Source: Isurus oxyrinchus
Taxonomy: Eukaryota
Length of the DNA: 64,000 bases
Reading direction: 5' to 3'
Assembly (NCBI GenBank): GCA_026770705.1
Contig: JANJGN010000012.1
Coordinates: 91,574,001-91,638,000 of the forward strand
Both the position numbers and the translations under genes were made by a program. The notes beneath the pieces are model-generated. The model did no database searches. It had not been told where the DNA came from and saw nothing but the letters and a program-made list of their open reading frames with translations. Every line of letters begins with the position of its first letter. Positions within the stretch are counted from its first letter, which is position 1. Shown here in pieces: positions 4,991 through 60,657 of this stretch.

Positions 4991-5107
4991 AATCCTCTTT
5001 TTAGCTTAGTGTTTTTTTTTGGACCATAGCTACTGATGATTCTGCTTTTCCCATTTACACGTCTTCTAGAATTATCCTTTTATTTAAAACTTGATCCATT
5101 ACCATCT

Positions 5108-5272
5108 AAAAAGCAAAATACTGTGGATGCTGGAAATCTGAAACAAACACAGCTGGAAAAACTCAGCAGGTCTGGCAGAACTGATGAAGAGTCATATGGA
5201 CTCGAAACGTTAACTCTGTCTTCCTCTCCACAGATGCTGTCAGATCTGCTGAGTTTTTCCAGCTATTTTTGT
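5108..5272. mobile_element. 165-bp inverted pair of PLE pseudo-LTR ends with hammerhead motif
   Basis: Minus-strand end 5108-5178 joined to plus-strand end 5179-5272; flanked by tccattaccat(c/g)t at 5095-5107 and 5273-5285; ctgatga...gaaac at 5181-5208. Confidence 0.8.
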
Positions 5273-6381
5273 TCCATTACCATGTCCTTTGTCTTGCACT
5301 ATCATCTCTTTTGTCATTTAATCTCTTCCATTGTCCACCCAATCACAGACCTTCCCTTTTGTTCTTTCCCTGTATCCTCACCCTTGTTGCATTTCCAACT
5401 GTTTCAGGTCTGCTGAAAGGTCATCAATCTCTCCACAGTTACTGTCTGAACTGATGAGTGTTTCCTGAATTTTCTGGTTTTGTTTCAGATTTCTAGCATC
5501 CATAGTATTTTGCTTTTACATCAAAATTCCTTCCTGAAATTAATGAAAACTATTTTGTATATTTGCAGAAAGTAAATACCTGGCTGAGAGTAAAAAGGTG
5601 TGATTCAACGGTTAATCACCAAACACTTAAGCTTCAAACTCATTATTATGGACATCAACAGAACGCTTGAATCGAATCACAGCCCTCTAACACACTGTAT
5701 TTGTATACTTACTCAAAAGAACATGGATAAACATACATTTAAATCTGGCATATTCTTCCAACAAATTTACTAAATGCTCTGTAAGAACATTTGCCAGGAT
5801 TTCCTGGCTATATATAAACTGTAGGAATCATTCCACATTCTGTGCTTTATTTTCACACTGTACTTCATTAATGCATTGAGTGGCACGATTCCAACACTGT
5901 CCCTTAAAATAACTTCAGCCTTCATACTGCTACATTCCTCATAGGGCTTAAATATCATGTAAACATATTTAGTGCATAGTTTCACAGTTTTATAAATGTC
6001 AAATTCTAATTAAAGGCCAGCTCATACATTTTACTTTATCAGCATTTATAGTAATAAATTTAAGTAAATTTTATGCCAAACACCCAGTTTTAGACTACCT
6101 TTTGTTTTAGAAAATGGGAAACAGAATAATCATTTCTATAACTACCTTGTCAAAAACAATTTTTTTCAAAATCTTTTCCAGTAAAGGACACTGCAAAAAT
6201 AAAAAACAAACCTACTTATTCTGGTATTTTTTTGCTGAATTCTCCTCTGATACCATTCCATCAATAATACTGGATAATTGAAGCCAGATTCTGTCAAATG
6301 AGCATTGACTCTTAATCATCACCTGACAGGAAGTGAGTTGTGACAATTTTCCCACCCAAGTTGAAATCTCTATTCTTATGC

Positions 6382-7749: not shown

Positions 7750-8206
7750 AATTTTTTAAATATATATTTTTCTTTTCCCACCTAATTCTATTATTATTTT
7801 AAAAATTTATTTCCATCCATTGTTTTATCTCCAACTTTTAGCCTATTTGATCCCCACCCCACCCCCCACTAGGGCTATCTGTCACTTGCTCATCCTGCTT
7901 TCTACCCTTAATGTCACCATTAGCACATCCTTTAGCTAATATCACTACCATCAACACCCCTTTGACCTTTTGTCTATAACATCTTTGGCAATCACTCCTT
8001 TGCCTCGACCTATCACTGGCCCCCTATCCAGCTCCACCTGTCACACCCCCCACCCCCCCACCTTAAACAGCTTATATTTCACATCATTTCTATTCCTCTT
8101 TAGTTCTGATGAAGAGTCATACGGACTCGAAACGTTAACTCTGTTTTCCTCTCCACAGATGTTGTCAGACCTGCTGAGTTTTTCCAGCAATTTTTGTTTT
8201 TGTTTT
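7750..8206 (+). mobile_element. PLE 3' UTR/pseudo-LTR fragment
   Basis: Collinear with the 3' end of the young PLE at 18900-19350 (cccccactag, ccttaaac.agcttatatttc, gacctgctgagtttttccag). Confidence 0.8.
8102..8140 (+). ncRNA. Minimal type I hammerhead ribozyme motif with canonical core
   Basis: agtt-CTGATGA-a-gagtc(atacg)gactc-GAAAC-GTT-aact: stem I agtt/aact, stem II gagtc/gactc, loopless palindromic stem III ACGT. Confidence 0.65.
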
Positions 8207-13900: not shown

Positions 13901-14171
13901 TTGGTCAATAAGATCCCTTACAAAAAATACTCAATGTAATCACTATCAACATATGGAGAAGGTGATGGTAGACCTTCTCCTTGAACTGCTGATGATGTGA
14001 TACAATTAAGTGCTTTCCTAAACCACTTCAGAGGACAGTTAAGAGGCAAACACAATGGTGAGACTCAACTGGCAAATAAGGCAGAACTAAAAGGAGCAAT
14101 AGAATGAAAAACAAAAACAGAATTACCTGGAAAAACTCAGCAGGTCTGGCAGCATTGGCGGAGAAGAAAAG

Positions 14172-14210
14172 AGTTGACGTTTCGAGTCCTCATGACCCTT
14201 CGACAGAACT
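14172..14210 (-). ncRNA. Hammerhead-like motif in left-arm pLTR (variant core CUGUCGA)
   Basis: Reverse complement identical to the motif at 19250-19288. Confidence 0.55.
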
Positions 14211-14597
14211 TGATTTCGAGTCCAAGAAAGAGTTGAAATATAAGCTGGTTTAAGGTGTGTGTGTGGGGGGCAGAGAGATAGAGAGAGAGGGGGGGGTGTG
14301 GTTGTAGGGACAAACAAGCAGATCATCAAAAGATGTCAGCGACAATGGTACAAAAGAACACATAGGTGTTAAAGTTAAAGTTGGTGATATTATCTAAATG
14401 AATGTGCTGATTAAGAATGGATGGTAGGGCACTCAAGGTACAGCTCTAGTGGGGGTGGAGGGAGCATAAAAGATTTTAAAATATTTAAAAATAATGGAAA
14501 TAGGTGGGAAAAGAAAAATCTATATAATTTATTGGGGAAAAAAAAGAGGGGGGAAACAGAAAGGGGGTGGGGATGGGGGAGGGTGGGGGGGGGGAGC

Positions 14598-16742
14598 TCA
14601 CGACCTAAAGTTGTTGAATTCAATATTCAGTCCGGAAGGCTGTAAGGTGCCTAGTCGGAAGATGAGGTGTTGTTCCTCCAGTTTGCGTTGGGCTTCACTG
14701 GAACAATGCAGCAAGCCAAGGACAGACATGTAGGCAAGAGAGCAGGGTGGAGTGTTAAAATGGCAAGCGACAGGGAGGTTTGGGTCATTCTTGCGGACAG
14801 ACCGCAGGTGTTCTGCAAAGCGGTCGCCCAGTTTACGTTTGGTCTCTCCAATGTAGAGGAGACCACATTGGGAGCAACGAATGCAGTAGACTAAGTTGGG
14901 GGAAATGCAAGTGAAATGCTGCTTCACTTGAAAGGAGTGTTTGGGCCCTTGGACAGTGAGGAGAGAGGAAGTGAAGGGGCAGGTGTTACATCTTTTGCGT
15001 GGGCATGGGGTGGTGCCATAGGAGGGGGTTGAGGAGTAGGGGGTGATGGAGGAGTGGACCAGGGTGTCCCGGAGGGAGCGATCCCTACGGAATGCCGATT
15101 ATGGGGGTGAAGGGAAGATGTGTTTGGTGGTGGCATCATGCTGGTGTTGGCGGAAATGGCGGAGGATGATCCTTTGAATGCGGAGGCTGGTGGGGTGATA
15201 AGTAAGGACAAGGGGGACCCTATCATGTTTCTGGGAGGGAGGAGAAGGCATGAGGGCGGATGCGCGGGAGATGGGCTGGACACGGTTGAGGGCCCTGTCA
15301 ACGACCGTGGGTGGAAAACCTTGGTTAAGGAAGAAGGAGGACATGTCAGAGGAACCGTTTTTGAAGGTAGCATCATCGGAACAGATGCGACGAAGGCGGA
15401 GGAACTGGGAGAATGGGATGGAGTCCTTACAGGAAGCAGGGAGAGAGGAGCTGTAGTCGAGGTAGCTGTGGGAGTCGGTGGGTTTGTAATGGATATTGGT
15501 GGACAGTCTATCACCAGAGATTGAGACAGAGAGGTCAAGGAAGGGAAGGGAAGTGTCAGAGATGGACCACATGAAAATGATGGAGGGGTGGAGATTGGAA
15601 GCAAAATTAATAAATTTTTCCAAGTCCCGATGAGAGCATGAAGCGGCACCAAAGTAATCATCGATGTACCGGAGAAAAAGTTGTGGAAGGGGGCCGGAGT
15701 AGGACTGCAACAAGGAATGTTCCACATACCCCATAAAGAGACAGGCATAGCTGGGGCCCATGCGGGTACCCATAGCCACACCTTTTATTTGGAGGAAGTG
15801 AGAGGAGTTGAGGGAGAAATTGTTCAACGTGAGAACAAGTTCAGCCAGACGGAGGAGAGTAGTAATGGATGGGGATTGTTCGGGCCTCTGTTCGAGGAAG
15901 AAGCTAAGGGCCCTCAGACCATCCTGGTGGGGGATGGAGGTGTAGAGGGATTGGACGTCCATGGTGAAGAGGAAGCGGTTGGGGCCAGGGAACTGGAAAT
16001 TGTTGATGTGACGTAAGGTGTCAGAGGAATCACGGATGTAGGTGGGAAGGGACTGGACAAGGGGAGAGAGAAGGGAGTCAAGATAACGAGAAATGAGTTC
16101 TGTGGGGCAGGAGCAAGCTGAGACGATCGGTCTACCGGGGCAGTTCTGTTTGTGGATTTTGGGTAGGAGATAGAAGCGGGCCGTCCAAGGTTGGGCGACT
16201 ATCAGGTTGGAAGCTGTGGGAGGAAGATCCCCAGAGGAGATGAGGTCAGTGACAGTCCTGGAAACAATGGCTTGATGTTCAGTGGTGGGGTCATGGTCCA
16301 GGGAGAGGTAGGAGGTAGTGTCTGCGCGTTGACGCTCAGCCTCCGCGAGGTAGATGTCAGTGCGCCAGACAACAACAGCACCACCCTTGTCAGCGGGTTT
16401 GATGACAATGTCAGGGTTGGACCTGAGAGAATGGAGTGCAGTAAGTTCAGAGAGAGACAGGTTAGAATGGGTGAGAGGAGCAGAGAAATTGAGACGACTA
16501 ATGTCGCGCCGACAGTTCTCAATGAAAAGATCAAGAGAAGGTAAGAATCCAGAGGGAGGGGTCCAGGTGGAGGGAGAATATTGGAGATGGGTAAAAGGAT
16601 CCGTTGAACTGGGAGAGGACTCCTGCCCAAAGAAGTGAGCCCGGAGACGAAGACGGCGGAAGAAGAGTTCAGTATCACGCCGAGCCCGAAATTCATTCAG
16701 GTGAGGGCGTAAGGGTATGAAACTAAGTCCTTTGCTGAGCAC
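14598..16742 (-). pseudogene. PLE RT + GIY-YIG endonuclease ORF, 5'-truncated, one in-frame stop at 15099-15101
   Basis: KPADKG, LPKIHK, RPIVS, DVQSLY, GVAMG, RYIDD RT motifs; VYCIRCSQCGLLYIGET...RFAEH endonuclease motif. Confidence 0.9.
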
Positions 16743-16945
16743 TGAACATTCAGCATCGGAGAGGGGAAGGTCAGGGGGTATAGTGAATACACGGCTGGGG
16801 CTGGGATTGGAAGATGGGGTGGGGACGGAGGGACAGGCCGGGGTGGAGGGTCCTAGATGGGTGTTGGTGTCGATGAGTTGTTGGAGCTTGCGTTCCTTAG
16901 CACTTGAGAGAAAGAGAAAAAGTCTCTTGTTGAGGCATCGGATGC

Positions 16946-18853
16946 GACATTCGTCGTCTCAATTTCTCTGCTCCTCTCACCCATTCTAACCTGTCTCTCT
17001 CTGAACTTACTGCACTCCATTCTCTCAGGTCCAACCCTGACATTGTCACTAAACCCGCTGACAAGGGTGGTGCTGTTGTTGTCTGGCGCACTGACCTCTA
17101 CCTCGCAGAGGCTGAGCGTCAACTCGCAGACACTTCCTCCTACCTCTCCCTGGACCATGACCCCACCACTGAACATCAAGCCATTGTTTCCAGGACTGTC
17201 ACTGACCTCAGCTCCTCTGGGGATCTCCTTCCCACAGCTTCCAACCTGATAGTCGCCCAACCTCGGACGGCCCGCTTCTATCTCCTACCCAAAATCCACA
17301 AACAGAACTGCCCCGGTAGACCGATCGTCTCAGCTTGCTCCTGCCCCACAGAACTCATTTCTCGTTATCTTGACTCCCTTCTCTCTCCCCTTGTCCAGTC
17401 CCTTCCCACCTACATCCGTGATTCCTCTGACACCTTACGTCACATCAACAATTTCCAGTTCCCTGGCCCCAACTGTTTCCTCTTCACCATGGACGTCCAA
17501 TCCCTCTACACCTCCATCCTCCACCAGGATGGTCTGAGGGCCCTTAGCTTCTTCCTCGAACAGAGGCCCGAACAATCCCCATCCACCACTACTCTCCTCC
17601 GTCTGGCTGAACTTGTTCTCACGTTGAACAATTTCTCCTTCAACTCCTCTCACTTCCTCCAAATAAAAGGTGTGGCTATGGGTACCCGCATGGGCCCCAG
17701 CTATGCCTGTCTCTTTATGGGGTATGTGGAACATTCCTTGTTGCAGTCCTACTCCGGCCCCCTTCCACAACTTTTTCTCCGGTACATCGATGATTACTTC
17801 GGTGCCGCTTCATGCTCTCGTCGGGACTTGGAAAAATTTATTAATTTTGCTTCCAATCTCCACCCCTCCATCATTTTCACGTGGTCCATCTCTGACACTT
17901 CCCTTCCCTTCCTTGACCTCTCTGTCTCAATCTCTGGTGATAGACTGTCCACCAATATCCATTACAAACCCACCGACTCCCACAGCTACCTAGACTACAG
18001 CTCCTCACACCCTGCTTCCTGTAAGGACTCCATCCCATTCTCCCAGTTCCTTCGCCTTCGTCGCATCTGTTCCGATGATGCTACCTTCAAAAACGGTTCC
18101 TCTGACATGTCCTCCTTCTTCCTTAACCGAGGTTTTCCACCCACGGTCGTTGACAGGGCCCTCAACCGTGTCCAGCCCATCTCCCGCGCATCCGCCCTCA
18201 CGCCTTCTCCTCCCTCCCAGAAACATGATAGGGTCCCCCTTGTCCTCACTTATCACCCCACCAGCCTCCGCATTCAAAGGATCATCCTCCGCCATTTCCG
18301 CCAACTCCAGCATGATGCCACCACCAAACACATCTTCCCTTCACCCCCCTTATCGGCATTCCGTAGGGATCGCTCCCTCCGGGACACCCTGGTCCACTCC
18401 TCCATCACCCCCTACTCCTCAATCCCCTCCTATGGCACCACCCCATGCCCACGCAAAAGATGTAACACCTGCCCCTTCACTTCCTCTCTCCTCACCGTCC
18501 AAGGGCCCAAACACTCCTTTCAAGTGAAGCAGCATTTCACTTGCATTTCCCCCAACTTAGTCTACTGCATTCGTTGCTCCCAATGTGGTCTCCTCTACAC
18601 TGGAGAGACCAAACGTAAACTGGGCGACCACTTTGCAGAACACCTGCGGTCTGTCCGCAAGAATGACCCAAACCTTCCTGTCGCTTGCCATTTTAACACT
18701 CCACCCTGCTCTCTTGCCCACATGTCTGTCCTTGGCTTGCTGCATTGTTCCAGTGAAGCCCAACGCAAACTGGAGGAACAACACCTCATCTTCCGACTAG
18801 GCACTTTACAGCCTTCCGGACTGAATATTGAATTCAACAACTTTAGGTCGTGA
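16946..18853 (+). CDS. PLE RT + Cys-rich linker + GIY-YIG ORF, 5'-truncated but apparently uninterrupted
   Basis: ORF track 17489-18853 (454 aa) is in frame with the junction at 16946; RYIDD; CPRKRCNTC linker typical of the Neptune group; LVYCIRC..C..LYTGET. Confidence 0.9.
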   Translation, partial: DIRRLNFSAPLTHSNLSLSELTALHSLRSNPDIVTKPADKGGAVVVWRTDLYLAEAERQLADTSSYLSLDHDPTTEHQAIVSRTVTDLSSSGDLLPTASNLIVAQPRTARFYLLPKIHKQNCPGRPIVSACSCPTELISRYLDSLLSPLVQSLPTYIRDSSDTLRHINNFQFPGPNCFLFTMDVQSLYTSILHQDGLRALSFFLEQRPEQSPSTTTLLRLAELVLTLNNFSFNSSHFLQIKGVAMGTRMGPSYACLFMGYVEHSLLQSYSGPLPQLFLRYIDDYFGAASCSRRDLEKFINFASNLHPSIIFTWSISDTSLPFLDLSVSISGDRLSTNIHYKPTDSHSYLDYSSSHPASCKDSIPFSQFLRLRRICSDDATFKNGSSDMSSFFLNRGFPPTVVDRALNRVQPISRASALTPSPPSQKHDRVPLVLTYHPTSLRIQRIILRHFRQLQHDATTKHIFPSPPLSAFRRDRSLRDTLVHSSITPYSSIPSYGTTPCPRKRCNTCPFTSSLLTVQGPKHSFQVKQHFTCISPNLVYCIRCSQCGLLYTGETKRKLGDHFAEHLRSVRKNDPNLPVACHFNTPPCSLAHMSVLGLLHCSSEAQRKLEEQHLIFRLGTLQPSGLNIEFNNFRS

Positions 18854-19249
18854 GCTCCCCCCCCCCTCCCCCATCCCCACCCCCTTTCTGTTTCCCCCCC
18901 TTTTTTTTCCCCAATAAATTATATAGATTTTTCTTTTCCCACCTATTTCCATTATTTTTAAATATTTTAAAATCTTTTATGCTCCCTCCACCCCCACTAG
19001 AGCTGTACCTTGAGTGCCCTACCATCCATTCTTAATTAGCACATTCGTTTAGATAATATCACCAACTTTAACTTTAACACCTATGTGTTCTTTTGTACCA
19101 TTGTCGCTGACATCTTTTGATGATCTGCTTCTATCACTGCTTGTTTGTCCCTACAACCACACCACCCCCCCTCTCTCTCTATCTCTCCCTCCCCCACACA
19201 CACACCTTAAACCAGCTTATATTTCAACTCTTTCTTGGACTCGAAATCA

Positions 19250-19288
19250 AGTTCTGTCGAAGGGTCATGAGGACTCGAAACGTCAACT
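19250..19288 (+). ncRNA. Hammerhead-like motif in right-arm pLTR (variant core CUGUCGA)
   Basis: agtt-CTGTCGA-a-gggtc(atgag)gactc-GAAAC-GTC-aact. Confidence 0.55.
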
Positions 19289-20225
19289 CTTTTCTTCTCC
19301 GCCGATGCTGCCAGACCTGCTGAGTTTTTCCAGGTAATTCTGTTTTTGTTTTGGATTTCCAGCATCCGCAGTTTATTGTTTTTGTTTTTAGCAATAGAAT
19401 GAAATCCTGACATTTTCTGTTGCTGTGTTATACTGGAAAATGAGGCTTTGTAATTTGCTGTCCTAAGCAAAGCAGCTGTGACCTGATTCATGCAATTAGA
19501 AATGGTGGTTTGGTTGAGGCTTGTCATACCACCTGCAGTGTTGTGAAGGACCCAGCAGCAGGTGAGAACAGCTGTCTGATCACTACCACAGATGAGACTT
19601 TGCTCATTTCAGCATCTGTTTAGAGAATAGTTAACAACTCTTTACAGAGAGCAAGGCCGGTTTCTGTTGAGAACCTGAATCTTTGGAGATTTGTGTTTAT
19701 CAGGCAAAAATTACATATTTTTGCTTAAACACACATATACTTTTATTTCTTTTTCTACCTCTACAACATCAGCATATTGTATTAACATTAACAAATTGTA
19801 TACAAAATCAAGGTGGAGCATTGAAGAAGCATGCAGTTTTTGGTAATTCTCTTGGTTAATACATTCATTAGGTAAGAGGTAGATCACTAACAAAATTCTA
19901 TAAAGCATATGAGTGAGACTGAGCACATCCATAAACAACATACAAAATCATTGCAGCCAAGCAAATGAGCACAGCTGAGGAAACTGAGTGCAACATGAGA
20001 GTTTGGTGATTGGGAGAGTTTAAAGTGTTAATTTTGTTCTTAAAATCTGATCTAGCCTGTAATTAGCAATAACTGGGAAATACTGTGTAAACAGACTAAT
20101 TTTCTTTCTTTTTTGCAGCTTAGACAGGGTAAATACACTCCGCTGTGAGAACTGAGTAGTTAATTAGCTAACTGGTTGAATCTGGTTTCTCTAGCCCCAA
20201 TTCAGTTGGCTACAAATTCAGGGTT

Positions 20226-21300
20226 GCTTGGCCTAAATAGCCAAGTGGTTATGGTACTGGGTTTGTATTCCTGAGATCAAGGGTTCAAATCTCACAATGG
20301 CAAACTATGAAACAATGTAACTTCATCTGAAACAGATGGAAACGGGTTTGTACTCTTAAAAAAAAAGTTACCTGTCACAGTTTTGGCTTGGCCTAAATAG
20401 CCAAGTGGTTATGGTACTGGGTTTGTAACCCCAAGATCGAGAGTTCAAATCTCACAATGGCAAACTATGAAACAATGTAACTTCATCTGAAACAGATGGA
20501 CACGTGTTTGTGCTCGAAAGAGTATCAGTAAAGTGATATCATCGACAATGCTATCAAGCGGCACTTATATAGCCATAACCTGCTCAATTAGGCTTGGCCT
20601 AAATAGCCAAGTGGTTATGGTACTGGGCTTGTAACCCCAAGATCAAGAGTTCAAATCTCACAATGGGAAATAATGTAACTTCATCTGAAACAGATGGAAA
20701 CGGGTTTGTACTCGAAAGAAATCAAGAGTTCAAAGGCTTGGCCTAAATAGCCAAGTGGTTATGGTACTGGGTTTGTAACCCCAAGATCGAGAGTTCAACT
20801 CTCACAATGGCAAACTATGAAACAATGTAACTTCATCTGAAACAGATGGAAACGGGTTTGTGCTTGAAAGAGTATCAAGAGTTTAAATCTCACAATGGCA
20901 AACCTATGAAACAATGTAACTTCATCTGAATAGGAACAGATGGAACCATGTTTGTACTCGAAAGAGTTACATTGCCGGGCCTTTAGCTTGGCCTAAATAG
21001 CCAAGTGGTTATGGTACTGGGCTTGTAACCCGAAGATCAAGAGTTCAAATCTCACAATGGCAAACTATAAACAATGTAACTTCATCTGAAACAGATGGAA
21101 ACGGGTTTGTACTCGTAAGAGTATCAAGGGTTCAAATCTCACAATGGCAAACTATGAAACAATGTAACTTCATCTGAAACAGATGGAAACGGATCTGTAC
21201 TCGAAAGAAATCAAGAGTTCAAATCTCACAGTGGCAAACTATGAAACAATGTAACTTCATCTGAATCAGATGGAAACGGGTTTGTACTCAAAAGAGTTAC
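20226..21300 (+). mobile_element. Concatemer of five tRNA-Thr-like SINE units with eight B-box/tail modules and unique junction sequences
   Basis: Heads gcttggcctaaatagccaagtggtta at 20226, 20386, 20592, 20736, 20986; A box tagccaagtgg, anticodon-loop-like ttgtaa, B box agttcaaatc; TSD tacaaattcagggtt at 20211-20225 and 21298-21312. Confidence 0.85.
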
Positions 21301-21577
21301 AAATTCAGGGTTCTTAGTGCAGCCAAGGCAACTGAGGGAAGCTAAGGAAATTGATTGCAAACCTGAGTGTTTGGGGAGTTAGGGTGAAGTGGAAATTGGT
21401 TCTTACTCTTAAGCAGGGAAAGGAGATAGCTGTTTGCTCAGTATCTGATAAGTTGATAAATTCTATTCTATCCCTAAGGTTTAAAATACGACACAATTTT
21501 GTGGTAAAATTAATAAAATATATAAAAAAAACAAAATAAATAAGTGAACAATGTAATAAATTAAAACACATTAAGGG

Positions 21578-28595: not shown

Positions 28596-28733
28596 ATCTC
28601 TGAAGAAGAGTCATTCGGACTAGGAGCGTTAACTCTGTTTCTCTCTCCACAGATGCTGACAGACCTGCTGAGTTTTCCTGCCTTTCCTGTTTTTATTTCA
28701 GATTTCCAGCATCCTGACTATTTTACTTTTATT
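28596..28733 (+). mobile_element. PLE pseudo-LTR end with tail, inserted in the Gypsy relic
   Basis: ctgaagaagagtcattcggactaggagcgttaactc...gacctgctgagtttt...gatttccagcatc. Confidence 0.7.
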
Positions 28734-31870: not shown

Positions 31871-32261
31871 GGTAACTACCACAAAGAAAATCTTGAGCTC
31901 TTTTAACTCAAATCAACATTTACATTTTCGCTTCTTTCCTGGCTGAAGATTGACTTTCCAAGTAAAGCATTGCGATAATGAATACTTTGGTGATTTGATC
32001 ATAACTGTATTAATTGAAGTATCCAAAGTTGGAGAGCGCACATCCTATGGTACACATCAGTGAAGTTGGTTTAAGATTTGTATTAGAGCAAGAAGAAAGC
32101 AACTATCAGAGGCAACATGTTTTATCTTTTCTTTTCTGCCGATGCTGCCAGACCTGTTGAGTTTTTCCAGGTAATTCAGTTTTTGTTTTGGATTTCCAGC
32201 ATCCACAGTTTTTTTGTTTTTATCCCTTTTTGTTTAATTGACTGCCACTGCTCTTCAAGAA

Positions 32262-34998
32262 ATGCCTACCTTGAAGTTTTGTTCATCTCTGCGACAAGAT
32301 TTCTGTATCTCTCTTTTGCCTTGTTCACCTTCATTGCTTTCCATTTCTCTCCTGGTGTTTGACAAGGTGTTTACTAAAACCTGCTTTCACAGCCATATCT
32401 CCTTTCTCAGTGACTGTCTCCATCTCCGACATACCCCACGTGGATTTCAACTGAAATTCTATCCCTCTTGTTTCGAACCCACCCAGGATTACAGGTATCT
32501 CCTGGACATAAAACATTTCTCGGACTGCTGTTCCCGTCACATTCTGAGATCCACATTCAGTGCCATGCGCCGCCATTTGAACACACTCGACCTCTCCCTC
32601 CAGCAGCACCGTCGTACCCTTTTTCAAAGCTGCGCGTGCCCCCAGTTTCATTTTATTCTTCGTCTCATCCGACGCCTCAACAAGAGACTTTTTCTCTTTC
32701 TCTCAAGTGCTAAGGAATGCAAGCTCCAACAACTCATCGACACCAACACCCATCTAGGACCCTCCACCCCTGCCTGTCCCTCCGTCCCCACCCCATCTTC
32801 CAATCCCAGCCCCAGCTGTGTATTCACTATACCCCCTGACCTTCCCCTCTCCGATGCTGAACGTTCAGTGCTCAGCAAAGGACTTAGTTTCATACCCTTA
32901 CGCCCTCACCTCAATGAATTTTGGGATTGGCACGATGCTGAACTCTTCTTCCTCCGTCTTCATCTCCGGGCTCACTTCTTTGGCCAGGAGTCCTCTCCCC
33001 GTTCAACGGATCCTTTTACCCACCTCCAATATTCTCCCTCCACCTGGACCCCTCCCTCTGGATTCTTACCTTCTCTTGATCTTTTCATTGAGAACTGTCG
33101 GCGTGACATTAGTCGTCTCAATTTCTCTGCTCCTCTCACCCATTCTAATCTGTCTCTCTCTGAACTTACTGCACTCCGTTCTCTCAGGTCCAACCCCGAC
33201 ATTGTCATCAGACCCACTGACAAGGGTGGTGCTGTTGCTGTCTGGCGCACTGACCTCTACCTCGCGGAGGCTGAGCGTCAACTCGCAGAAACTTCCTCCT
33301 ACCTCTCCCTGGACCATGACCCCACCACTGAACATCAAGCCATTGTTTCCAGGACTGTCACTGACCTCATCTCCTCTGGGGATCTTCCTCCCACAGCTTC
33401 CAACCTGATAGTCACCCAACCTCGGATGGCCCGCTTTTACCTCCTACCCAAAATCCACAAACAGAACTGTCCTGGTAGACCGATCGTCTCAGCTTGCTCC
33501 TGCCCCACAGAACTCATTTCTCGTTATCTTGACTCCCTTCTCTCTCCCCTTGTCCAGTCCCTTCCCACCTACATCCGTGATTCCTTTGACACCTTTCATC
33601 ACATCAACAATTTCCAGTTCCCTGGCCCCAACTGCTTCCTCTTCACCATGGATGTCCAATCCCTCTACACCTCCATCCCCCACCAGGATGGTCTGAGGGC
33701 CCTTAGCTTCTTCCTCGAACAGGCCCGAACAATCCCCATCCACCACTACTCTCCTCCGTCTGGCTGAACTTGTTCTCACACTGAACAATTTCTCCTTCAA
33801 CTCCTCTCACTTCCTCCAAATAACAGGTGTGGCTATGGGTACCCGCATGGGCCCCAGCTATGCCTGTCTCTTTATGGGGTATGTGGAACATTCCTTGTTC
33901 CAGTCCTACTCCGCCCCCTTCCACAACTCTTTCTCCGGTACATCGATGATTACTTCAGTGCTGCTTCATGCTCTCGTCGGGACTTGGAAAAATTTATTAA
34001 TTTTGCTTCCAATCTCCAACCCTCCAGCATTTTCACGTGGTCCATCTCTGACACTTCCCTTCCCTTCCTTGACCTCTCTGTCTCAATCTCTGGTGATGGA
34101 CTCTCCACCAATATCCATTACAAGCCTACCAACTCCCACAGCTACCTTGACTACAAATTCTCACACCCCGCTTCCTGTAAGGACTCCATCCCGTTCTCTC
34201 AGTTCCGTCGCATCTGTTCTGAAAATGCTACCTTCAAAAACAGTTCCTCTGACATATCCTCCTTCTTCCTTAACCGAGGTTTTCCACCCACGGTGGTTGA
34301 CAGGGTCCTCAACCGTGTCTGGCCCATCTCCCGCGCATCTGCCCTCATGCCTTCTCCTCCCTCCCAGAAACATTTTAGGGTCCCCCTTGTCCTCACTTAT
34401 CACCCCACCAGCCTCCGCATTCAAAGGATCATCCTCCGCCATTTCTGCCAACTCCAGCATGATGCCACCACAAAACACATCTTCCCTTCACCCTCCCGGC
34501 AGCATTCCGTAGGGATCTTTCCCTCCGGGACAACCTGGTCCACTCCTCCATCACCCCCTACTCCTCAACACCCACCAATGGCACCTCCCCATGCCCACGC
34601 AAAAGATGCAACACCTGTCCCTTCATTTCTTCTCTCCTCACCGTCCAAAGGCCCAAACACTCCTTTCAAGTGAAGCAGCATTTCACTTGCATTTCCCCCA
34701 ACTTAGTCTACTGCATTCGTTGATCCCAATGCGGTCTCCTCTACATTGGAGAGACCAAACGTAAACTGGGCGACCGCTTTGCATGTTACCTGCGGTCTGT
34801 CCTCAAGAATGACCCAAACCTTCCTGTCGCTTGCCATTTTAACACTCCACCCTGCTCTCTTGCCCACATGTCTGTCTTTGGCTTGCTGCATTGTTCCATG
34901 AAGCCCAACGCAAACTGGAGGAACAGCACCTCATCTTCCGACTAGGCACTTTACAGCCTTCCGGACTGAATATTGAATTCAACAACTTTAGGTCGTGA
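32262..34998 (+). pseudogene. Complete PLE ORF (N-terminal region, RT, linker, GIY-YIG) with several frameshifts and a stop
   Basis: ATG at 32262 (MPTLK); ORFs 32238-33767, 33829-, 33984-34673 tile the same protein as 16946-18853. Confidence 0.9.
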
Positions 34999-35366
34999 AC
35001 TCCCTCCTCCATCCCCACCCCTTTTCTGTTTCTTCCCCCTTCCTTTTGTTTTTTCCAATAATTTATATAGATTTTTCTTTTCCCACCTATTTCCATTATT
35101 TTTAAATCTTTTATGCCCCCCCACCCCCCACTAGAGCTATACCTTGAGTGCCCTACCATCCATTCTTAATTAGCACATTTCGTTTAGATAATATCACCAA
35201 CTTCAACACCTCTGTGTGTTCTTATGTCTGTGACATCTTTTGATTATCTGCTCCTATCACTGCTTGCTTGTCCCTACAACCACACCACCCCCCTCTACTT
35301 CTCTCCACCCACCCAACTCCCCACCTTAAACCAGCTTATATTTCACCCCTCTCCTGCGATTCACCC

Positions 35367-35405
35367 AGTTCTGCTGAACGGTCATGAGGACTTGAAACGT
35401 CAACT
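35367..35405 (+). ncRNA. Hammerhead-like motif in 3' pLTR (core CUGCUGA)
   Basis: agtt-CTGCTGA-acggtc(atgag)gactt-GAAAC-GTC-aact. Confidence 0.5.
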
Positions 35406-35482
35406 CTTTTCTTTTCTGCCGATTCTGCCAGACCTGCTGAGTTTTTCCAGGTAATTCTGTTTTTGTTTTCAACATGTTTTAT

Positions 35483-56122: not shown

Positions 56123-58512
56123 CATCTTCATGTTATTTTAGTGAATAGTATTTGAAACAATAGTTTTGTAATACAGACCCTGGCATTCAGTGTCCAAAGA
56201 TCAGTGTTTGAATTCTATGCAAAATTATTTTAATTATGTAGCAATTTTGTTTTTTTTCTAAAATCAGAATTTGGATGGTAAGTCAGGATAGTTTTTTTTT
56301 CTCATCAGATCAACTGATAATTTCCATATGCCATACTTAAAATGGCAGCATGCTCACAATTGACATAATTTTTGCCATGATCACCAGCTTATAAAGACAA
56401 TATGTAATCTCATGCTATTGATTTTTTATGACATGCTTTTATTCATCTAAATGTCAACAAAGAAATCCTAATGCTTAGAAGTGAAAGACATTAAAGAAAG
56501 TGTATTGCTACACACTAGACAGGACCACATGGTACCACTGATTGTTATCACCTATGTTTGACTTTGAACAGCATATCCTCTGCTGCTAAGGTATGGAGAG
56601 GCAGATATTTCAATTTTTCATGGGTTCTTAAGTTTCCATGTTGGGAGACAATTCCAACAGCTCGGTAGGTCACAGAGTTGCAGAAACCTCAGTGATAAGG
56701 AAACACATATATATCAATGTACTCTTGTGTATAGCAAATTAATTTCTCTAAAAATCAGCTGCAATAATATCTGTCAATTTTACACTTAGAAAGGCCCTCC
56801 GTAATGTTTAGGCTGACAAAAGAAGTCTAGTTATAATAAAAATGGCAACAATTCTCAGCTGCAAAGAATAAATTTGGGCCTCTTTTCATTATTTTAGCAC
56901 TGTTACTTTCCATCCTCTGAGGCAAAATTTCAAAAAGAGATATGGATGCTAAAAAGCATAAAAAACAAAAACACATTTAATTAGGCATTTCCAACAGTTT
57001 GTATAAATCATATAAGATATTGTAAATTACATGTCATGTTTTCAGTTTCACCTCCTGTTGATTATTTTGATCTTGCATCTGGATTTAATTATCACGTTGA
57101 GATAACATACAATGTTTATTAAAAATCTGCCTGTAAAGCACAGACTGGAAGCAGGATCAGCCGCTTTTATAATGGAATACATGATTGGGCAGATTCACCT
57201 GTCTTGTGAAAAACAGAAAAAAAAATCAGATAAACTGGCCTTCTGACTTTTGAGTTGACACGTGTTAAGCACTGAACTTCTCTGGTGTTTGAAATGTTCT
57301 GAGTCCATGCATTGCTGGCATAATTAACCACCCCTTGCACATAAAGCATCTCAAGTATTAACTTAGTCTAATGAGAGATGTGGAATAAAGCCAATGGCTT
57401 GGTGAAGAGTGAATTAAAATGACAATGAGAAAATTGCAGTAGTAATCTATTTTTTCATTATACATTTTAGAGCTGAGATGAGGTCTGTGTATTTGAAAGC
57501 ATTCAGTATTTATCCAGAGTATATTCAGTATAATAACAGGGATTTTAAAGAGTTTTAGAAGAAACAACCCTACTAAAATTGTAATATAGCTTTTCTCAGC
57601 ATATTTTTTGCCTTCCTCTACTTTTTTATTTTCTTCCTTATCTCCTGAATATAATAACTCTTTCCCAGTTACATCTCTGGGGTCATTAGTTGCACTCACC
57701 CAAGTGGTTATTCTCCATGTGTGAACCAGGGCAGCAAGGTCTGGAATCCTAATGTTGGCTAACTGCTGCTGGATGTACTGTGTTGTGGGTCACAAATTTA
57801 CTCTTATGCATAGGCACTGACCCTGATGGAAATCCTGGAGTCAGCTGATCTTCATGATTCGCAATACATCTTTTTGTTGTAACCCCTGTCTGGATGCCAG
57901 TGAAGGTCTATAAGTAGCCACTTAATGGCCTCAGCCCACAACGGTGGGCAGGGGACTCAGTATCCAGGGAGGCTGCTCAGCAAAACCTGTTGGGTTTTCC
58001 AGCAGCCTACCAAGGGGACCCCTCATTCACAGGCATGTTGTCCCTATGACTCCCATCCCAACTGCACTCGCCTCCATCCAGGGATCCATGGCTGATTTAG
58101 GCCTGAGTGTAGTACTGGTAACAGTCACCTACTGGAGAGCTGTTGGCCTCTGATTGGCTGGCAGGTCCCAGGGATAGGATTTTCCCACCACTGGGGCTTT
58201 AATCGAGTGGGAGGTCTGACACTGTCCAGCTATGCATCGTTACCTGGTTGTTGCATTGCACCACCTGGAAAGAAGCAATGCAGGGCTCTCACCGGTTCTC
58301 CAACCAGTGGACGAGGCCCCAATGCACTCTCTAAATTCCACCTATCATTACCCCTCGCTCCCGTCACGACCCATAGCCATGTAACTTGGGAGAGGCAAAA
58401 TCTGGGGACAAAATGCTTTGAAAACTTACTCTCCAATCCCCTCAGGTAATCAAACCTTCGCCTTCGTCGCATCTGTTCCGATGATGCTACCTTCAAAAAC
58501 GGTTCCTCTGAC

Positions 58513-59259
58513 ATGTCCTCCTTCTTCCTTAACCGAGGTTTTCCACCCACGGTCGTTGACAGGGCCCTCAACCGTGTCCGGCCCATCTCCCGCGCATCCG
58601 CCCTCACGCCTTCTCCTCCCTCCCAGAAACATGATAGGGTCCCCCTTGTCCTCACTTATCACCCCACCAGCCTCCGCATTCAAAGGATCATCCTCCGCCA
58701 TTTCCGCCAACTCCAGCATGATGCCACCACCAAACACATCTTCCCTTCACCCCCCTTATCGGCATTCCGTAGGGATCGCTCCCTCCGGGACACCCTGGTC
58801 CACTCCTCCATCACCCCCTACTCCTCAACCCCCTCCTATGGCACCACCCCATGCCCACGCAAAAGATGTAACACCTGCCCCTTCACTTCCTCTCTCCTCA
58901 CCGTCCAAGGGCCCAAACATTCCTTTCAAGTGAAGCAGCATTTCACTTGCATTTCCCCCAACTTAGTCTACTGCATTCGTTGCTCCCAATGTGGTCTCCT
59001 CTACATTGGAGAGACCAAACGTAAACTGGGCGACCGCTTTGCAGAACACCTGCGGTCTGTCCGCAAGAATGACCCAAACCTCCCTGTGGCTTGCCATTTT
59101 AACACTCCACCCTGCTCTCTTGCCCACATGTCTGTCCTTGGCTTACTGCATTGTTCCAGTGAAGCCCAACGCAAACTGGAGGAACAACACCTCATCTTCC
59201 GACTAGGCACCTTACAGCCTTCCGGTCTGAATATTGAATTCAATAACTTTAGGTCGTGA
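58513..59259 (+). CDS. PLE C-terminal part: RT thumb, Cys linker, GIY-YIG endonuclease (truncated ORF)
   Basis: 248-aa ORF with CPRKRCNTC and VYCIRCSQCGLLYIGETKR...RFAEH. Confidence 0.85.
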   Translation: MSSFFLNRGFPPTVVDRALNRVRPISRASALTPSPPSQKHDRVPLVLTYHPTSLRIQRIILRHFRQLQHDATTKHIFPSPPLSAFRRDRSLRDTLVHSSITPYSSTPSYGTTPCPRKRCNTCPFTSSLLTVQGPKHSFQVKQHFTCISPNLVYCIRCSQCGLLYIGETKRKLGDRFAEHLRSVRKNDPNLPVACHFNTPPCSLAHMSVLGLLHCSSEAQRKLEEQHLIFRLGTLQPSGLNIEFNNFRS

Positions 59260-59664
59260 GCTCCCTCCCCCATCCCCACCCCCTTTCTGTTTCCCCCTTT
59301 TTTCCCCCTTTTTTTTTTCCCTATAAATTATATAGATTTTTCTTTTCCCACTTATTTCCATTATTTTTAAATATTTTAAAATCTTTTATGCTCCCCCCAC
59401 CCCCACTAGAGCTGTACCTTGAGTGCCCTACCATCCATTCTTAATTAGCACATTCGTTTAGATAATATCACCAACTTTAACTTTAACACCTATGTGTTCT
59501 TTTGCACCATTGTTACTGACATCTTTTGATGATCTGCTTCTATCACTGCTTGTTTGTCTACACAAGCACCTCTGTCTCTCTCTCTCTCTCCTTCCCCCCC
59601 CCCCCCCACCCCCCACACACCTTAAACCAGCTTATATTTCAACTCTTTCCTGGACTCGAAATCA

Positions 59665-59703
59665 AGTTCTGTCGAAGGGTCATGAGGACTCGAAACGTCA
59701 ACT
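59665..59703 (+). ncRNA. Hammerhead-like motif (variant core CUGUCGA)
   Basis: Identical to 19250-19288. Confidence 0.55.
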
Positions 59704-60657
59704 CTTTTCTTCTCCGCCGATGCTGCCAGACCTACTGAGTTTTTCCAGGTAATTCTGTTTTTGTTTTAGATTTCCAGCATCCGCAGTTTTCTTTGTTTTC
59801 AACTGTTCAGGAGATGATTGGGTCAAGTGTTATCTGTAAAGACATTTACCTTCTAAAGAATGGGATCTCGGTCCTGCCAGGAACTGGCCTACCTTCCTCT
59901 TGAAGGCATTTGGAGAATCAGCACCCCACCCCCCGACCCCCACACCAGCTAAAATGTAGGAGTAAAAGAAAATCAGTTAATTTTCTTGAAAGTGAGTTGC
60001 AGCATCTCCTATGCATAATGAGGCAGGGAATGGATTCATCTTCTAGGGTTTGAGCCAAGAAGCCTGCAAACTGCACTATGGAAGTTATTCAAAAAGAGTA
60101 ACATTGGCATTTAACCAGCAGGACATCCTCTTGTGTTGCAAAAGCCCAATAATTTGACAACAGCAGCTAAGTTTGGTGCTACAGCAGTTTCACAACTGAT
60201 TAGTATAACATAACCACAGAGCCAAGGGTAACACAAGCATTCTAGCATTCCCCTGTGAGGTACCACAGTGAGCAAGGAATTAATAACTGCAGTCACCCTA
60301 TTGGCTAGATTCCTCCAAATTACCTGTGTTCTCATATATCTATCCATATCTGTCTTCTTATACATCTCATTTCATGTTATATTCTCACACATCTGTCAAA
60401 ATTCCGTTTCAATAGCATAACAATTATTAAAATTGAACGGCAGACCATCAAAATGTTAAACACGATTTATTTTTGTTACAGGAGAAAATAGCTCCCAATG
60501 CACAGTAACATCAGGTAATCCCTGGAGGACCAGCAGATCATTGTGTTCATGGTACTGGCCATGACTAAAGCAGTAGGGCAGAGAAGTGTGAGGTCAGCTA
60601 ACTGGGCTTTTTCAGTGCAGATGAATGTGTTGCAATTGGAACCAACTCCATTGCATC

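Follow-up and report, generated by a model that had tools for sequence, protein, structure and literature searches.

5' ends of a Neptune-type PLE family in Isurus oxyrinchus pile up at the front edge of its hammerhead motif, 35 nt upstream of the predicted cut

In R2 elements a ribozyme cut sets the 5' end of the insertion. For PAc, a Poseidon element of the green anole, the accessible text describes two internal RT start sites that define a tail downstream of the hammerhead, cleavage and extension of both strands in vitro, and dispensable hammerhead cleavage; unprocessed RNA is the main substrate there, and no RNA-seq ends fall at the cut (PMC11167929). The idea that Penelope-like element (PLE) RNA is cleaved, circularised and copied comes from Cervera and de la Pena 2014 (PMC4209133), so far as its accessible text goes, and both the rebuilding of the pLTR and the role of the hammerhead are called open questions in the accessible parts of PMC2377424 and PMC8557442. 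EN+ Neptune-type PLEs, as described in the accessible text of PMC8557442 and PMC3846280, have a single RT and GIY-YIG ORF with a linker zinc finger, partial tandems, an inverted 5' copy, TSDs, heavy 5' truncation and a 30-40-bp tail on one side, and all of these recur in the family described here, the GIY-YIG end as a motif seen by eye.

The window analysed is a stretch of 64,000 nt from Isurus oxyrinchus (GCA_026770705.1, JANJGN010000012.1:91,574,001-91,638,000, forward strand) and contains a PLE insertion of 3,344 bp. Positions are numbered from the predicted hammerhead cut: +1 is window position 35402, just past the cut, -1 is the preceding C, and -35 is 35367, where helix I starts and where the 5'-end hot spot of the family falls. 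Identical 13-mers at 32113-32125 and 35470-35482, with no third occurrence within the window, bound the insertion. Its 5' end at 32126 corresponds to +5, or to +4 if the final T of the TSD belongs to the element, its 3' end at 35469 to +68, and the predicted cut trinucleotide GTC occupies 35399-35401. The first-pass annotation of this locus had the TSD, the GTC and both ends right in every letter and coordinate. The features are as follows.

32113..32125, + strand: 5' TSD, 13 bp, its last T possibly element +4
32126..32189, + strand: 5' partial pLTR, +5..+68 relative to the predicted cut, 3/64 mismatches against the 3' copy
32190..32261, + strand: remaining 5' leader including the 'long tail', whose end at ~+100..+104 is the second family 3'-end class
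32262..34998, + strand: ORF of a Neptune-type PLE, RT and GIY-YIG-like, disrupted by multiple frameshifts plus an in-frame stop near 34721
34999..35366, + strand: 3' UTR and upstream part of the 3' pLTR, pyrimidine-rich; subfamilies vary just before -35
35367..35405, + strand: predicted minimal type I hammerhead fold, predicted cut after 35401
35367-35370 and 35402-35405, + strand: hammerhead helix I arms
35371-35377, + strand: hammerhead core, C at position 6
35394-35397, + strand: hammerhead GAAA
35402..35469, + strand: 3' end segment +1..+68, short-tail class, putative RT initiation site (from the sequence and the accessible text of PMC11167929)
35470..35482, + strand: 3' TSD, 13 bp

The family is abundant, with 106,809 exact occurrences of its tail 36-mer in the 4.98-Gb genome and at least 4,200 ORF-bearing copies (3,991 + 222 exact matches). 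The window ORF is coding-dead and its five ORF fragments gave no Pfam match, and the RT motifs DKG and YIDD are visible in its frames. A naturally intact relative, L331, spans 927 residues from stop to stop; DKG, YIDD and a C-x4-C-x2-C linker are all present, its end is GIY-YIG-like, and it matches Pfam RVT_1 with E=3.7e-7. The single ORF with a PLE-type RT that characterizes EN+ PLEs is therefore recognizable in both the window frames and L331. A VY-x10-YI(G/R)ET motif, which we take to be that of GIY-YIG, was found by eye in both, whereas a Pfam GIY-YIG match was absent. The further EN+ PLE hallmarks, namely the pLTR or partial tandem, inverted 5' copies, tail and TSD, were all observed. The C-x4-C-x2-C linker fits the CX2-5CxxC zinc finger between RT and EN, which Neptune shares with Nematis according to the accessible text of PMC8557442; by the linker criterion of that source the element, as judged from its sequence, is a Neptune-type PLE. 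Three ORF starts spaced 3,325 bp apart in G000:C1:12159811-12166488 (L353-L355) form a full head-to-tail tandem. The element is also present in contigs taken as RNA, a status that is a guess, and these show no start or end sites; all 24 runs available were contigs or of unknown kind. In the RNA contig L021 a joint from 1298 to 1466, considered as a splicing product, has at its start a sequence that only resembles the hammerhead front, and a microhomology deletion accounts for it better.

Helix I, helix II, GAAA, a palindromic helix III and an NUH site, the elements of a minimal type I hammerhead, are all found in the family, which has kept both helices, the GAAA and the ACGU palindrome. As in the accessible descriptions of the published minimal PLE hammerhead, helix I is short, an extra A precedes helix II and a palindromic ACGU replaces helix III. 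Unlike the published motif, 377/381 family motifs have U or C at core position 6; A6, as in the canonical CUGANGA core, occurs in 3/381 (overlapping loci counted separately). In two other hammerheads the A6C exchange sharply reduces Mg-dependent cleavage (accessible text of PMC7151607, where A6U goes unmentioned). The window copy has a C6 core, and the first base pair of its helix II (C35379/T35393) is disrupted, neither of which the first-pass annotation noted. An Rfam scan of the window returned no hammerhead match, and when three motifs were folded as monomers the MFE structures did not include the hammerhead (z -0.3 to +1.2), a result that is expected for dimer-type motifs and is uninformative. 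A common subfamily (L109, L124 and many others) carries a near copy of the hammerhead 3' half at -50..-36, which could compete for helix II or assist slippage.

The first-pass annotation had taken ribozyme cleavage to define the RNA 5' end, so that copies should show a cluster of 5' ends at the GUC site. None of three samples had one; ends accumulated 35 nt upstream instead. The first sample was anchored in the tail and combined 30 loci with the tail 36-mer, forty 10-kb stretches surrounding other places on the list as far as C1:3.02 Mb (excluding the last 8 of 100 listed) and 30 of 100 listed variant-pattern places. It comprised 170 distinct tail copies, a few of them from a related subfamily, and anchored alignment against natural copies, repeated with a larger panel, located their ends. 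Reading through beyond ~-72 was seen in 81/170 copies. None of the 163 copies at risk ended in -3..+6 (7.0 expected), whereas 36/135 ended in -38..-31, at the upstream edge of the hammerhead (5.1 expected). These 36 ends were made up of 10 direct flank junctions, 24 inverted junctions and 2 others. The two arms of an inverted pair do not count as independent events, so the count of direct junctions, 10 against 1.3 expected (P ~1e-6), is the safer figure; palindromic microhomology helps the inverted junctions at this peak. The direct junctions showed no cap-like excess of G (5/28 versus 9/52).

The second sample was anchored in the ORF, at +111, and held 116 copies, drawn from 60 loci plus 60 stretches, excluding 6 listed places of one pattern, 70 of the other and the mis-called L401. 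Here 3/85 copies ended in -5..+6 against 2.3 expected, and 7/76 ended in -40..-33 against 1.5 expected (P=0.001); the rate of 5'-end loss in ORF-bearing copies was ~0.25% per nt. Among the 38 copies spanning the whole ORF to the second tail, 28 read through past ~-72 and the other ten ended at -71, -40, -8, +6, +12, +37, +68, +71, +72 and +93. There is no clear -35 peak among these full-length copies, which counts against reading -35 as a template end, and the scatter of their ends places the peak mainly in short or internally rearranged copies.

For the third sample, genome-wide patterns required non-element letters upstream of a 9-nt window. The cut window gave 70 matches, a control at -21..-13 gave 494 and the edge at -38..-30 gave 3,106, the last count being inflated by inverted arms (25/32 called ends). 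On real junctions the filter passed at rates of 0.027, 0.107 and 0.074, respectively; corrected for these rates the counts become ~2,600, ~4,600 and ~42,000, with anchor abundance not normalised. Thirty fetched cut-window loci had ends spread across -1..+9, three of them at +1, with no +1 peak. Thus the R2-like pattern of insertion 5' ends peaking at the cut appears in none of the three samples. The 5' HDV-like ribozyme of R2, as described in the accessible literature, frees the element from its co-transcript, whereas insertion 5' ends of this family avoid the cut; for this family the genome rules out a simple R2-like answer. A 5'-end hot spot fixed at the front edge of the hammerhead goes unmentioned in the accessible text of PMC8557442 and PMC3846280, and genomic 5' ends, mapped here, are not mapped in that of PMC11167929.

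Individual copies bounded by TSDs illustrate both positions. Three stubs (L107, L299 and L301) begin at -35 and the full-length L318 at -32. The full-length copies L321 and L322 begin at +1 and at -3/-5, respectively, and both came from a query beginning at +5, which favours copies starting there and was kept out of the statistics. The proximity of the window copy to the cut is a coincidence no greater than chance: with 3/85 ORF-bearing ends near the cut against 2.3 expected, its 5' end is likely to be fortuitous, and on the order of a hundred window-like copies are expected by chance among the at least 4,200. Its 3/64 pLTR mismatches do not separate transfer from read-through.

Family 3' ends fall into two clusters, at +62..+72 and +99..+109, and 49/55 inverted pairs combine one long and one short tail. 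By analogy, the two end classes and the tail pairing fit the internal RT starts and both-strand extension of the anole element. Two tail-defining RT start sites and both-strand extension would thus be shared with PAc, going by its accessible text; the PAc cut is located 26 nt inside the ORF, whereas here the ORF starts ~140 nt past the cut. The internal RT start that the first-pass annotation placed ~68 nt from the RNA end agrees with the +62..+72 cluster, with ~+102 as the other candidate site. In the accessible literature, an internal RT start at the tail (Frangieh 2024) and the circle idea (Cervera 2014) are already published. A further end cluster at +106..+112 in BLAST output was discarded as partly an alignment edge near the anchor.

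Run-off followed by template transfer, which the first-pass annotation had also envisaged, is partly supported by footprints in chimeras and duplications, but with the run-off point at ~-35 and not at +1. We found 20 distinct chimeras in which an upstream element piece is joined directly to a pLTR piece (604 tails, not an unbiased set). In 12 of the 20 the sequence resumes at -42..-31, often with extra letters, resembling the RT run-off and jump with extra letters described for R2 in the accessible text of PMC6765202 and PMC8857657. Five of the twelve (L317, L319, L386, L416 and L450) land near element position ~+1065, where the ORF matches the -40..-30 region at 10/11 letters; given this resemblance, they may be homology-driven deletions.

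A search for the hammerhead 3' half followed by the front edge returned 46 matches, which collapsed to 28 loci once arrays and segmental copies were merged. All 28 were fetched and carry an extra hammerhead piece of ~35-40 nt. Every duplicated piece stops at -43..-16, the upstream piece reads into the pLTR in 0/28 loci as compared with 81/170 generally (P ~1e-8), and 25/28 loci have a TSD-like match of at least 9 nt (automatic search, hand-checked in part). The lack of pLTR read-through together with the TSD-like matches suggests that the duplications arose at insertion. The downstream ends of the extra pieces fall at -2 (0), -1 (6), +1 (8, ambiguous with -1), +2 (3), +3 (8), +4 (2) and +5 (1). 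Against a uniform null, the absence of ends at -2 has P 0.02-0.09 and the 14 ends at -1/+1 have P 0.002-0.14, depending on the window assumed; the test is post hoc, -2 is its sole upstream control, and the +3 group is without explanation, while the +2 ends are explained by microhomology. Front-edge duplications in unselected loci are too few to give a baseline at -20..-3. The 14 pieces ending at -1/+1 are a possible trace, suggestive only, of cleavage in vivo that would have produced an RNA 3' end serving as acceptor. Single insertions at L462, L473, L479 and L480 hold arrays of 2-7 head-to-tail hammerhead pieces of 35-41 nt. The open main-text literature searched describes neither 5' ends at the front edge of the hammerhead nor duplicated leader pieces; the sources without either, in their accessible text, are PMC8557442, PMC3846280, PMC6765202, bioRxiv 10.64898/2026.07.22.740005 and PMC8857657.

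The reading we favour, with a probability of roughly 0.68, is that the window holds a full-length, TSD-bounded Neptune-type PLE, probably truncated beside the cut by chance, and that the -35 pile-up probably reflects the 5' end of an uncleaved template RNA. We infer a class of RNA beginning at about -35, probably at a transcription start; the letters at -36/-35 resemble what we take to be the initiator consensus. An endonuclease would nick the target and RT would prime internally, at the tail. Priming at the nearby tail of the -35 RNA would give stubs of 100-140 nt that run off the RNA end, after which RT would join the target or the opposite-strand cDNA, or jump to another template. A longer tandem transcript primed at its downstream tail would yield full-length copies whose 5' ends are scattered. 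Such priming with an ordinary 5' truncation is the simplest account of the window copy: on a tandem read-through RNA, RT primed at the 3' tail would have stopped 4 nt short of the upstream hammerhead, with no transfer involved. Cleavage would be rare and is not needed. In D. virilis Penelope, transcription begins within the pLTR, from an internal promoter (accessible text of PMC2377424); for the present family, no RNA 5' end was seen in the contigs and cap-like G was not in excess, both of which weigh against a start at -35.

The peak could instead mark a place on a longer RNA where local sequence, such as the helix I arm, palindromes (for example around -36/-35) or the upstream pyrimidine tract, makes RT stop or attracts repair. 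Read-through of -35 in nearly half of the tail-anchored copies, the inverted nature of two thirds of the peak ends, the missing cap-G excess and the flat distribution in full-length copies all agree with it. We nevertheless consider it unlikely, as RT moving 3' to 5' would reach helix I first at +4, where ends are depleted, the peak persists in direct junctions and across subfamilies that differ upstream, and the 28 duplicated pieces never read on into the pLTR. A boundary made by a 3' splice site, with its AG at -35/-34, or by other processing appears distinctly improbable: a pyrimidine tract and YAG directly precede -33 in most subfamilies, and the D. virilis Penelope intron ends at helix I (Cervera 2014, accessible text of PMC4209133), but the TSD-bounded stubs carry 0-3 extra letters before -35 with no shared exon, and the AG is also required for helix I.

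Highly improbable is the scheme in which the template 5' end is made by hammerhead cleavage and RT, initiating 68 nt inside it, runs off at +1 and then switches to the RNA 3' end or passes over a circle junction. The window copy, L321 and L322 do begin within 5 nt of the cut, internal RT starts and jumps do occur, and a circle closed at the cut site would be invisible in the DNA sequence. That scheme, however, predicts many +1..+68 stubs where the tail-anchored sample has none; moreover, matches in the cut window are fewer than in the control, ORF-anchored ends near the cut are at baseline, and the hammerhead core is non-canonical. The observation of the first-pass annotation is thus confirmed, and its interpretation is partly supported but largely refuted.

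A more tentative possibility, to which we would give well under even odds, builds on the preferred reading of an RNA that starts at -35: the hammerhead, lying at the RNA start, may clip off a 35-nt leader, and RT, having run off at -35, may jump end to end onto other templates, that leader among them. The -35..-1 segment could then serve as an R-like terminal redundancy, allowing seamless transfer that rebuilds partial tandems. If so, cleavage in vivo by a PLE hammerhead, even one with a U6 core, would have its first genomic record in the 28 insertions that carry extra [-35..-1/+3] pieces. The window copy itself is ordinary; the end map of the whole family allows sharp tests of mechanism, with bench targets at single-base resolution: the predicted RNA start at -35, the putative RT starts at +68 and ~+102, and the possible cleaved 35-nt leader.

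Other copies lie elsewhere in the window. An inverted pair of the same family occupies 14103-19390, with both copies 5'-truncated, a junction near 16945, a short tail on the minus arm and a long tail on the plus arm; a long-tailed, 5'-truncated copy occupies 58455-59800. Ends of a related PLE family at 5107-5273, 8106-8206 and 28600-28730 have a canonical or near-canonical CUGANGA core, and the related copy at 5181 is a fold-back with its junction at the hammerhead front. An array of 7-8 units spaced 87-250 nt apart at 20225-21301 has weak Rfam tRNA matches and probably consists of repeated tRNA-derived SINE heads.
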